From Heptranchias perlo (lineage: Eukaryota): a stretch of DNA of 64,000 bases. The notes beneath the pieces are model-generated. The model worked only from the letters and a program-made list of their open reading frames with translations, searched no databases and was not told the origin of the DNA. The translations under genes were made by a program, and so were the position numbers. Shown piece after piece: positions 36,313 to 40,814 of the stretch. Numbering within the stretch: position 1 is the first letter of the stretch; each line of letters starts with the position of its first letter. The DNA is taken from positions 24,428,001 through 24,492,000 of the forward strand of contig NC_090352.1 of assembly GCF_035084215.1 (NCBI RefSeq). Reading direction: 5' to 3'.

Positions 36313-36921
36313 GATCCATGCCATCAGAGCAAGGTATAAAGGCTAATACTAAGAGTCAGATTTATTTACAGATTGAATAATACATGGAAGCTGTAGGGCA
36401 CAGTAAGATACTGAGAGTACAATACTTAAAAACAATAAAAATAAAATCAGTCCTCAGGGGTTAAAATACCCTTTTTAGAACATATAAGCTTAATAAGTGA
36501 TAGGACTTTTGGATGAATATGTCCTTCACAGACATTCAAATGCAATATTATATGTGGATGATATTCCAACACACTCGGAGTTTAGATTTTGAGTCTGAAG
36601 TATATCTTTGATTTATGCCATGGGAAGTTTTTCATGTTGCAGACATTTCTTTGAAGTCAACAATCAAACTTTGAGTACAGCAGATTCCACACCTCCAGGG
36701 TGAGGTGTTAACGTCTGGATATTCCTGTCTTCCTCCAAACATTTCCCTTAATAGTTCAGCTATCAGAGAGAGTAAATTCCAGCATCGATCAATATGTTGA
36801 CATTTCACTTGTTCTCGCCATCAAATATCATTTTATTTACCACATTTCTGAACAAAAGCATACATACACAAATAAAACCCATTCCAGATGTCTGTTTCTC
36901 ATTGAATTTGCCTAATTGGTA

Positions 36922-36995
36922 CAGTATAGTGGTTATGTTACTGGGCTAGTAATCGAGAGGCCTGGACTAAAATCCAGAGTCATGAGTTCAAATCC
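36922..36995 (+). promoter_or_regulatory. RNA Pol III internal promoter (A box/B box) in a tRNA-like head
   Basis: A-box-like CAGTATAGTGG at 36922-36932 (SINE relatives have TAGCATAGCGG and TAGCCTAGTGG). B box GAGTTCAAATCC at 36984-36995. Confidence 0.65.
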
Positions 36996-37263
36996 CGCCA
37001 CGGCAGCTGGCGAATTTAAAATTCAATTAATTAATTAAATTCAATTAATTAAATAAAAATCTGGAATTAAAATACTAGTATCAGTAATGATGGCCATGAA
37101 ACTACCGGATTGTCGTAAAAACCCATCTGGTTCACTAATGTCCTTTCGGGAAGGAAGCCTGCCGCCCTTACCCGGTCTGGCCGACATGTGACTCCAGACC
37201 CACAGCAATGTGGTTGATTCTTAATTGCCCTCTGAAATAGCCTAGCAAGCCACTCAGTTGTAA

Positions 37264-40170
37264 AATCTCGCTACGAAAAGTCATAATAAGAATAAAACCG
37301 GACGGACCACTAGGCACCGGACACGACAACGGCAAAACACCAGGCCCAGTCGACCCTGCAAGGTCCTCCTGACTAACATCTGGGGACTTGTGCCAAAATT
37401 GGGAGAGCTGTCCCACAGACTAGTCAAGCAACAGCCTGACATAGCCATACTCACAGAATCATATCTTTCAGCCAACGTCCCAGACTCTTCCATCACCATC
37501 CCTGGGTATGTCCTGTCCCACCGGCAGGACAGACTCACCAGAGGTGGCGGTACAGTGATATACAGTCAGGAGGGAGTGGCCCTGGGAGTCCTCAACATTG
37601 ACTCTGGACCCCATGAAATCTCATGGCATCAGGTCAAACATGGGCAAGGAAACCTCCTGCTGATTACCACCTATCGTCCTCCCTCAGCTGATGAATCAGT
37701 CCTCCTCCATGTTGAGCACCACTTGGAGGAAGCACTGAGGGTAGCAAGGGCACAAAATGTACTCTGGGTGGGGGACTTCAATGTCCATCACCAAGAGTGG
37801 CTCGGTAGCACCACTACTGACCGAGCTGGCCGAGTCCTGAAGGACATAGCTGCTAGACTGGGCCTGCGGCAGGTGGTGAGCGAACCAACACGAGGGAAAA
37901 ACTTACTTGACCTCGTCCTCACCAATCTACCTGTCGCAAATGCAACTGTCCATGACAGTATTGGTAGGAGTGACCACCGCACAGTCCTCGTGGAGATGAA
38001 GTCCCGTCTTCGCACTGAGGACACCATCCAACGTGTTGTGTGGCACTACCACCGTGCTAAATGGGATAGATTCAGAACAGATCTAGCAGCTCAAAACTGG
38101 GCATCCATGAGGCGCTGCGGGCCATCAGCAGCAGCAGAATTGTATTCCACCACAATCTGTAACCTCATGGCCCGGCATATTCCTCACTCTACCATTACCA
38201 ACAAGCCAGGGGATCAACCCTGGTTCAATGAGGAGTGTAGAAGAGCATGCCAGGAGCAGCACCAGGCGTACCTAAAAATGAGGTGCCAACCTGGTGAAGC
38301 TACAACTCAGGACTACATGCATGCTAAACAGTGGAAGCAACATGCTATAGACAGAGCTAAGCGATTCCACAACCAACGGATCAGATCAAAGCTCTGCAGT
38401 CCTGCCACATCCAGTCGTGAATGGTGGTGGACAATTAAACAACTAACGGGAGGAGGAGGCTCTGCAAACATCCCCATTCTCAATGATGGCGGAGTCCAGC
38501 ACGTGAGTGCAAAAGACAAGGCTGAAGCGTTTGCAACCATCTTCAGCCAGAAGTGCCGAGTGGATGATCCATCTCAGCCTCCTCCCGATATCCCCACCAT
38601 CACGGAAGCCAGTCTTCGGCCAATTCGATTCACTCCACGTGATATCAAGAAATGGCTGAGTGCACTGGATACAGCAAAGGCTACAGGCCCCGACAGCATC
38701 CCAGCTGTAGTGCTGAAGACTTGTGCTCCAGAACTAGCTGCGCCTCTAGCCAAGCTGTTCCAGTACAGCTACAACACTGGCATCTACCCGACAATGTGGA
38801 AAATTGCCCAGGTATGTCCTGTCCACAAAAAGCAGGACAAATCCAATCCGGCCAATTACCGCCCCATCAGTCTACTCTCAATCATCAGCAAAGTGATGGA
38901 AGGTGTCGTCGACAGTGCTATCAAGCGGCACTTACTCACCAATAACCTGCTCACCGATGCTCAGTTTGGGTTCCGCCAGGACCACTCGGCTCCAGACCTC
39001 ATTACAGCCTTGGTCCAAACATGGACAAAAGAGCTGAATTCCAGAGGTGAAGTGAGAGTGACTGCCCTTGACATCAAGGCAGCATTTGACCGAGTGTGGC
39101 ACCAAAGATCCCTCGTAAAATTGAAGTCAATGGGAATCAGGGGGAAAACTCTCCAGTGGCTGGAGTCATACCTAGCACAAAGGAAGATGGTAGTGGTTGT
39201 TGGAGGCCAATCATCTCAGCCCTAGGGCATTGCTGCAGGAGTTCCTCAGGGCAGTGTCCTAGGCCCAACCATCTTCAGCTGCTTCATCAATGACCTTCCC
39301 TCCATCATAAGGTCAGAAATGGGGATGTTCGCTGATGACTGCAGAGTGTTCAGTTCCATTCGTAACCCCTCAGATAATGAAGCAGTCCGAGCCTGCATGC
39401 AGCAAGACCTGGACAACATCCAGGCTTGGGCTCATAAGTGGCAAGTAACATTCATGCCAGATAAGTGCCAGGCAATGACCATCTCCAACAAGAGAGAGTC
39501 TAACCACCTCCCCTTGACATTCAACGGCATTACCATCGCCGAATCCCCCACCATCAACATCCTGGGGGTCGCCATTGACCAGAAACTTAACTGGACCAGC
39601 CATATAAATACTGTGGCTACGAGAGCAGGTCAGAGGCTGGGTATTCTGCGGCGAGTGACTCACCTCCTGACTCCCCGAAGCCTTTCCACCATCTACAAGG
39701 CACAAGTCAGGAGTGTGATGGAATACTCTCCACTTGCCTGGATGAGTGCAGCTCCAACAACACTCAAGAAGCTCGACACCATCCAAGATAAAGCAGCTCG
39801 CTTGATTGGCACCCCATCCACCACCCTAAACATTCACTCCCTTCACCACCGGCGCACTGTGGCTGCAGTGTGCACCATCCACAGGATGCATTGCAGCAAC
39901 TCGCCAAGGCTTCTTCGACAGCACCTCCCAAACCCGCGACCTCTACCACCTAGAAGGACAAGAGCAGCAGGCACATGGGAACAACACCACCTGCACGTTC
40001 CCCTCCAAGTCACACACCATCCGGACTTGGAAATATATCGCCATTCCTTCATTGTCGCTGGGTCAAAATCCTGGAACTCCCTTCCTAACAGCACTGTGGG
40101 AGAACCGTCACCACACGGACTGCAGCGGTTCAAGAAGGCGGCTCACCACCACCTTCTCGAGGGCAATTAG
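37264..40170 (+). pseudogene. APE endonuclease-reverse transcriptase ORF with one premature stop
   Basis: The frame opens after TAA at 37261-37263 and contains NIWGL, PDIAILTES, GGG, YRPP, GDFN, SDH and all RT motifs including FADD. A single TAG at 39223-39225 is CAG in the other copy. ORFs 37390 and 39319 are in the same frame. Confidence 0.9.
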
Positions 40171-40814
40171 GGATGGGCAATAAATGTCGGCCTTGCCAGC
40201 GACGCCCACATCCCGTGAACGAATAAAAAAAAAGCTGAATGAAACTGTTTTTAAATCAGATTTACCAGTCTATCTACGGTCATACAACACAAAATATCTG
40301 TATTTTGTCACCATTACCATGAAAACATATGGCTGAAGATGTGTCTCCAAATGTGCTCACAGCAACAAAAAAAATGGTAAATGGAACTGTATGTTGCTAC
40401 ATGCATCTGTTTTTAATATGTAAATTTAGGAAGCAATTAGTAATTTTACCTATTTATCCATCTTGATTAACTTACCCCACCCACACTGGTAGGAAAACAA
40501 TTCTGCCTGTTTGGCCACACTGTGCAAAATTGGTTTACCTGGTGGAGACCAAACAGGGCTACATGAAAGAGAGTTGTAATGCTAATACTCAGTGGAAAGC
40601 CTAGGCCTCTTTCTTTTGGTGAGGCCCATTTGAACTCCCAACTATGATGATGTTGACTATCTCTGCGTGCCTGGGTAATTGCTCAGAATCCATCATATCT
40701 TGTCGGTGGAATTAAGAGCCATAGAAACTCAATGCAAAGGATTTCATATTTCAGTTTGAGAATATTAAAATATGGCTTGCTCCAGTGTTATTTGGTGTGC
40801 TGTGAGAATGGTGT

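Follow-up and report, generated by a model that had tools for sequence, protein, structure and literature searches.

Long interspersed elements (LINEs) and short interspersed elements (SINEs) are separated in practice by polymerase and coding capacity, the former being transcribed by RNA polymerase II (Pol II) and coding, the latter using RNA polymerase III (Pol III) for transcription and being non-coding (PMC5786205, PMC4494074). Zenon LINEs of the CR1 group have been described from elasmobranchs, coelacanth, and hagfish, and all of them end in a poly-A tail and lack a first open reading frame (ORF1) (Stuart et al., 2026; PMC13343379). The Persaeus SIDE of Lepidoptera carries the 5' end of a lepidopteran Zenon and has, according to the accessible text, neither tRNA homology nor a Pol III promoter (PMC6740152), and bivalve SINEs use CR1-Zenon tails (PMC11481361). 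Here we describe an element at positions 36918..40233 (plus strand) of a 64,000-nucleotide (nt) stretch of the Heptranchias perlo genome (NC_090352.1, positions 24,428,001 to 24,492,000, hereafter the window, to which all coordinates refer). We consider it moderately probable that this is a tRNA-headed Zenon-type LINE whose RNA is made by Pol III. The element is a likely Pol III-copied coding retrotransposon because it combines a tRNA-derived head with a coding strand that is free of terminating T-runs.

The window element is a full-length copy, and all of its parts lie on the plus strand. The tRNA-derived head (36918..37010) is a few bases short at its 5' end relative to the family start GGGTACGGT and contains an A box (36922..36932), which has a degenerate form here (CAGTATAGTGG) but a regular one (TAGCATAGTGG) in the family majority, and an exact B box (GAGTTCAAATCC, 36984..36995), in agreement with the A/B-box head proposed by the initial annotation. 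The head is followed by a leader of approximately 250 nt, comprising an AT-rich, partly palindromic spacer of variable length (37011..37075, with AATAAA at 37052) and a conserved non-coding body of approximately 190 nt (37076..37262), the latter common to a short partner SINE and to the shark and ray Zenon consensuses. The longest ATG-started ORF in the leader has 34 codons, leaving no room for an ORF1, and the coding capacity is restricted to a single frame for an apurinic endonuclease (APE) and reverse transcriptase (RT) at 37264..40170 (968 codons from stop to stop; Pfam domains Exo_endo_phos, Exo_endo_phos_2, and RVT_1), as had been annotated. Within the frame, the first endonuclease motif is at 37366, the first in-frame ATG at 37996 (codon 245), and the FADD motif at 39328. 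The most identical protein match (80% over 31% of the query) was annotated from a shark. The 3' tail (40160..40233), also common to the short partner, has a possible stem-loop, AATAAA at 40179, and a short A tail; of the annotated 3' features, the A tail reaching 40233 was recovered, whereas the stem-loop, though it can be drawn, does not exceed shuffled sequences in stability (z -0.01). The first T run past the element is a T5 in the flank (40248..40252), a candidate Pol III stop at this locus. The window element is not a working coding copy, as a premature in-frame TAG (39223..39225), private to this copy, breaks the RT region.

The architecture is shared by a family of copies. A genome search with the head through the ORF start as query returned 3616 candidates, of which 40 were scored, and the head-ORF junction is present in all 40 scored matches, with coverage extending from query base 12 or earlier to at least base 750. 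Copies start at one motif, and their upstream flanks are unrelated among 30 loci, one of which was mis-anchored, except for one pair, which represents a duplicated region; none of the long copies examined runs upstream into an ORF1 or another 5' untranslated region (UTR), the outcome that would have contradicted the initial annotation. The 5' end (GGGTACGG) is sharp, and all 9 nt of GGGTACGGT are kept in 24 of 35 copies (one mismatch allowed). The expectation that full-length copies consistently begin at the head is thus borne out, while the expected target-site duplications outside it are rarely long: exact matches of at least 6 nt occur in 6 of 35 copies, compared with 6.1% of mismatched pairs, and none reaches 8 nt. 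The A tail was reached by 37 of the 40 copies fetched with flanks; the tails are short, and a few are T/A-mixed. After removal of eight copies (one duplicate, three without a 3' end, and four rearranged, interrupted, or deleted), 32 colinear full-length copies were aligned, which differ by a median of 1.5% from their majority (3322 nt), consistent with the recent activity that had been proposed. A stop-free frame of at least 960 codons is present in five of these 32.

A second search used the head and body alone because the head-ORF query is biased toward joined copies. In 27 of the 30 loci fetched, which include the window copy and four loci from the earlier set, the sequence runs colinearly into the ORF up to the end of the locus; the other three are one short form joining head to tail, one locus ending at base 595, and one rearranged locus. 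Older copies with a head-ORF junction were also recovered with an older head as query, at 76-85% identity. The head, body, one endonuclease-RT frame, and A tail therefore travel as one unit. The presence of SINE-form copies with the same head in the window could have pointed to a chance LINE/SINE chimera restricted to this locus, but the junction in 40 of 40 scored matches on many contigs, together with the published consensuses of five other species, refutes a one-off event, the probability of which we regard as negligible. The window element represents a real, recently active family of single-ORF Zenon LINEs with a fixed tRNA-derived head of predicted promoter type.

The assignment to Zenon is based on the single APE-RT ORF, the absence of ORF1, the poly-A tail, and the match to published elasmobranch consensuses, whereas neither the esterase ORF1, nor the grouping with esterase-bearing CR1, nor the absence of poly-A that characterizes canonical vertebrate CR1 was found. 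A 14-nt motif of the body matches six rows of the PMC13343379 supplement, all of them elasmobranch Zenon, and among its accessible rows the head and body open seven of seven elasmobranch Zenon consensuses and none of the three from hagfish and coelacanth (first ~400 nt, compared by eye). The closest published consensus is SquAca_Zenon-1 (first 400 nt, by eye). The family shares with the elasmobranch Zenon LINEs (SquAca_Zenon-1, CarCar_Zenon-1, RhiTyp_Zenon-1, ScyCan_Zenon-1, and HypSab_Zenon-1) a length of approximately 3.3 kb, one APE-RT ORF, poly-A, and the lack of ORF1, but at a site that is ATA in nearly all aligned copies of this genome, six of the seven published rows carry an ATG that is out of frame. 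With invertebrate, hagfish, and coelacanth Zenon and with Persaeus it shares the single ORF and poly-A, as well as the tendency of Zenon to yield short elements made of its two ends; the hagfish and coelacanth rows differ in having no head within the first ~400 nt. In a quick RT tree of 58 rows, the element falls in a group of 28 rows (SH-aLRT 97) consisting of ORFs without long upstream ORFs and is apart from the CR1 of the same genome, although this tree contains no named Zenon references and the branch of one row (L097) is very long. A decayed CR1 in the window (57138-59500, plus strand) served as a control and retains remains of a GDSL-esterase ORF1 (a weak Pfam match below the cut-off) and pieces of APE-RT, supporting the earlier statement that the CR1 near 57200 carries an ORF1.

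These comparisons change the interpretation of the missing ORF1. Because Zenon elements as a group lack ORF1, its absence here is inherited and ordinary; the initial proposal of a coding retroposon with a SINE-type promoter retains its headed coding family, but the lack of ORF1 can no longer be taken as a sign of promoter type. The special feature of the shark and ray family, as judged from the compared consensuses, is the head and not the missing ORF1, and the head is older than the shark-ray split if the ray consensus is right. Nor is the family undescribed as a sequence, since near-identical consensuses have been published as elasmobranch Zenon. The words "tRNA" and "polymerase III" are absent from the main text of that publication (PMC13343379) and from its preprint, the latter searched without supplements. 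No tRNA-headed or Pol III-driven LINE was found in the literature by title or abstract start in open-access text, with Repbase and Dfam outside this search, and a text search of open-access papers with four motifs of the element found none. Thus, the sequence family is already published, and the headed architecture and T-run signature are the part for which these open-access searches returned no earlier description.

The head aligns best with the tRNA-Ser(AGA) gene of the genome (alignment score 59, z 6.1), although the isotype is tentative because Ser(CGA), Thr, Asp, and Cys scored 45-53 and only Ser, Asp, Cys, and Thr genes were compared. A tRNA-Thr origin, suggested by ARAGORN on an older copy, was set aside because tRNA-Ser(AGA) aligns slightly better; the anticodon arm of the latter is one base from the older head. 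Counted from the family start, the A box begins at +9 and the B box follows at +71, the same positions as in tRNA genes. Divergence among the 32 copies is 1.7% in the A box, 1.0% in the B box, and 3.3% in the stretch between them, although young copies mostly record neutral decay. All seven elasmobranch Zenon rows in the accessible supplement keep an A box of the TRGCNNARYGG type or a near match, with flanking bases that differ (by eye); the B box of the ray row is one base short. The head folds no better than shuffled sequences (z -0.97), giving no support for a cloverleaf. Large tRNA gene arrays were also observed, for tRNA-Cys on G000 C23 and for tRNA-Ser on G000 C1414 (L330-L359).

The tRNA-derived head with A and B boxes is a SINE2 feature, and the element also shares with tRNA-derived SINE2s with LINE tails the conserved body, the LINE-type tail, and the lack of an internal T4. 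However, it is ten times longer and codes for its own endonuclease and reverse transcriptase; where a SINE2 is short and non-coding, a 968-codon frame under purifying selection is found here. A relationship to MetaSINEs, in which a 66-bp Meta domain directly follows the head, was rejected as the body is unlike the published Meta consensus by eye (PMC4824008).

If the boxes of the head direct transcription, the element would have to be free of Pol III terminators. In vertebrates, Pol III terminates where the sense strand has a run of at least four T, a criterion used likewise elsewhere (PMC4494074). The 3322-nt majority contains no T run of four or more (T4+) compared with 21 runs of at least four A, and 27 of the 32 copies have no T4+, while the rest of the window contains T4+ at 7.5 per kb. 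Because the element is T-poor (20% T), null models were used. In the ORF, runs of TTT or longer number 5 against 12.4 expected by synonymous-codon permutation (ratio 0.40, P ~0.001, z -2.9), and five intact copies taken singly show the same depletion (z -2.4 to -3.4); runs of A, C, and G do not depart from expectation. The co-resident CR1 shows no depletion (8 T4 versus 9.0 expected). Among 160 related loci, 129 ORFs were usable, of which 128 contain T4+, and their TTT ratio has a median of 0.99 and a lowest value of 0.72. In addition, T4 is absent from the 2345 nt of sequence common to old copies, whose synonymous sites are 15% diverged. An L2 control was left out of the codon test and has five T4 runs in a span of 839 nt; separately, the 3' part of an abundant L2-like LINE at 48850-49400 (plus strand) is ~83% identical to many genome copies.

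The related ORFs were derived from metagenome and genome contigs, and many have little upstream DNA. Many eukaryotic LINE ORFs (L170-L249) are in contigs binned as prokaryotic, likely reflecting host contamination of the bins. Few T4 runs were also observed in L237 (4001-6034, 1 versus 8.5 expected) and L219 (3905-5986, 4 versus 11.6 expected); no tRNA was detected in these two loci or in L165, for which the available upstream DNA is very short. A wider clade of headed LINEs was considered and rejected, as a B-box pattern is upstream of only 1 of the 129 related ORFs and ARAGORN found no tRNA in 22 loci. Among the eight closest database relatives inspected, no upstream B box was seen, and in six a Met lies a short distance ahead of the first endonuclease motif.

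The frame has been under coding selection. Between the majorities of the young and middle subfamilies, the ratio of non-synonymous to synonymous change (pN/pS) is 0.12 (4 non-synonymous and 10 synonymous), and it is 0.27 in comparison with the old copies; the headed source elements therefore kept a working protein. The manner in which translation starts is less apparent. In five intact copies the first in-frame ATG is at codon 240-245, past the endonuclease motifs, and initiation must be unconventional because no in-frame ATG precedes the endonuclease domain. Six of the seven published shark and ray consensuses have an ATG approximately 75 nt before the first motif, in the +1 frame where readable, except in one deleted consensus; the corresponding site in the window is an ATA (37292..37294, plus strand; +1 frame relative to the ORF, by eye), and ATA is present at this site in 24 of 25 aligned copies of this genome and ATG in none. 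Subfamily length changes between the ATA site and the first endonuclease motif are multiples of three, which suggests that the linker before the endonuclease is translated. In four of eight middle-aged copies, the main-frame linker has a TGA at a CpG site. Within the linker, a 15-nt in-frame stretch (37300-37320), which sits between short direct repeats, is gone from the window copy and its nearest relatives and is kept in many other young copies. For the end of the body (37232-37262, plus strand), a hairpin can be sketched by eye in which the loop might pair with the nucleotides immediately preceding the ORF, an arrangement that we take to resemble, loosely, a pseudoknot of the dicistrovirus type of internal ribosome entry site (IRES). 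An unconventional start fits an uncapped RNA, without proving one.

Several observations weigh against transcription by Pol III. The element is T-poor overall, and the absence of T4 alone is modest (P 0.089 by synonymous-codon permutation, 0.092 by a first-order Markov model, and 0.008 by a looser codon null). The use of TTT versus TTC for Phe is unremarkable (P 0.19), and windows with four T of five are only mildly low (z -1.6). One relative, L165 (54-2789), with no known head and only 53 nt upstream, likewise has no T4 against 5.5 expected. Neither Rfam nor ARAGORN called the head of the window copy a tRNA, and no IRES-like fold beyond shuffled sequences was detected (z -1.05 and +1.24). The boxes could be kept through head exchange with the Pol III-driven short partner. 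Transcripts made by Pol III lack a cap and are normally short and untranslated. Moreover, in the accessible text of Kojima (2018; PMC5786205), autonomous LINEs use Pol II and SINEs cannot encode protein.

The head may be regarded as a captured passenger on a normal Pol II LINE, with a promoter in the body or transcription by host read-through and with the boxes as relics or in another role. The view that autonomous LINEs are Pol II units (PMC5786205) and the weakness of T4 absence by itself favor this interpretation, but it leaves unexplained why the 5' end is fixed at tRNA +1 (complete GGGTACGGT in 24 of 35 copies, one mismatch allowed), why the boxes persist across sharks and a ray, and why the T-specific run depletion is absent from CR1 and the 129 relatives. 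Read-through would have opportunity, as introns contain many copies, including 39% of CR1-Zenon-like LINE in the whale shark (bioRxiv 10.1101/443036). The AATAAA 45 nt ahead of the tail could be taken as a Pol II feature, but AATAAA also occurs twice within the first 400 nt; similarly, a capped RNA would make translation ordinary, but a cap leaves the missing in-frame AUG unsolved. On balance, we consider a passenger head unlikely and favor Pol III transcription of the headed element, for which the T-run depletion and the conserved boxes are indirect support.

Under Pol III transcription, TFIIIC would bind the predicted A and B boxes of the head, and Pol III would start at the 5' G, pass through 3.3 kb without a terminator, and stop at the first T run in the flank. 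The encoded protein would then attach to the 3' tail and use target-primed reverse transcription to copy the RNA; with such tail-bound copying of the whole RNA, each full-length insertion is proposed to carry its own promoter. The arrangement may have originated by template switching, through which an ancestral Zenon in the lineage of sharks and rays exchanged its 5' UTR for a SINE-type module resembling tRNA-Ser. The weakest step is protein synthesis, which would need a cap-independent, non-AUG, or frameshifted start, since a Pol III RNA is uncapped and no AUG precedes the endonuclease motifs. A broader version of this proposal, which extends it to the entire Zenon lineage of sharks and rays as an autonomous coding Pol III retrotransposon, is tentative. 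The lineage would have produced a terminator-purged, 3.3-kb uncapped RNA since before the shark-ray split, translated without an in-frame AUG with help from the body, and would give birth to SINEs by internal deletion; we regard this as possible but less probable than not.

The short partners bear on the last of these points. In a search with an older head, 19 of 30 loci have the head and body joined to the 3' tail, at rejoin points ranging from 40104 to 40193; of the remaining loci, one runs into the ORF, two carry other sequence downstream, and no tail was seen in eight. A joint near 37262-40160 is also present in contigs from four runs of four organisms (library type unspecified). Contigs of runs presumed to be RNA cover the element as well, although such contigs carry no information on transcript start, strand, or level. 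By their structure, the short partners are evidently SINEs. The rejoin points vary, and many fall within the terminal part of the ORF, a pattern that agrees with recurrent internal deletions of the headed LINE, as seen for Zenon in moths, and the reverse direction, in which a LINE captured the 5' half of a pre-existing SINE, fits too. Short elements consisting of a tRNA head and the 5' and 3' parts of a LINE resemble the Bov-tA-type SINEs (PMC5786205). However, in the Bov-tA-type model the head is acquired after the deletion and the LINE stays under Pol II, whereas here the full-length coding LINE is already headed and is of the CR1 group. In the accessible text of Kojima (2018; PMC5786205), such bipartite-derived SINEs are known from no groups other than RTE and Vingi and acquire the head as the final step.

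Precedents for Pol III-type sequence at the 5' end of a LINE are of two kinds: U6-L1 chimeras, each a one-off insertion, and BovB LINEs with 5' segments of SINE origin, reportedly noted by Walsh in 2013 and said to be a fusion of this type. The accessible text of PMC6036668 makes no mention of SINE-derived 5' segments in BovB.

Another alternative is a division of labor, in which the Pol III RNA is the one copied and the protein is supplied by rarer capped Pol II read-through RNAs from copies in genes, acting in trans on the shared tail. Trans action on the tail is implied by the abundance of the short partner, and such a division covers the boxes, the fixed 5' end, and the T-run depletion without requiring translation of an uncapped RNA. 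However, purifying selection on the ORF within the headed lineage is easiest to understand if the copied RNA supplies its own protein, and the in-frame AUG would still be missing; we therefore consider this arrangement improbable.

If Pol III transcription of the headed element is true, a long-lived coding LINE with a tRNA promoter would break the division of LINEs and SINEs by polymerase and coding capacity. The element would provide a natural translated Pol III RNA of several kilobases and a vertebrate system in which cap-independent, non-AUG initiation could be tested. A SINE would also have a short route to its birth, through deletion in a LINE that already bears the head, and the family suggests that a conserved SINE body can serve as a functional LINE 5' UTR. 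Even under Pol II transcription, the family is a trap for misannotation, since repeat masking would treat its 5' 345 nt as a SINE.

Related copies are present elsewhere in the window. The minus-strand copy at 21442..24055, previously annotated as nearly identical, is indeed young and 98.0% identical (BLAST match 21451-24055), but it is neither headed nor full-length, as it is 5'-truncated and begins inside the endonuclease region. An older copy (53005..54399, plus strand; 91-92% identity) is 5'-truncated and internally deleted, and an old fragment of the endonuclease region (31826..32526, minus strand) is 76% identical. Three further minus-strand sequences lack the ORF, namely an older head and body (45811..46064), the head of which ARAGORN called tRNA-Thr(AGT), a short partner in the SINE form (2865..3170), with a head remnant and the body joined straight to the 3' tail, and a body fragment (10398..10512, 75% identity).

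Two other features were observed in the window. Degenerate frames at 15441-17676 (plus strand) contain a Myb/SANT-like DNA-binding domain (PF13873, E 1.4e-6), which we take to resemble the DNA-binding gene of Harbinger-type transposons. At 26949-27413, a minus-strand frame gives the impression of the antisense of a decayed histone H2B-like sequence.

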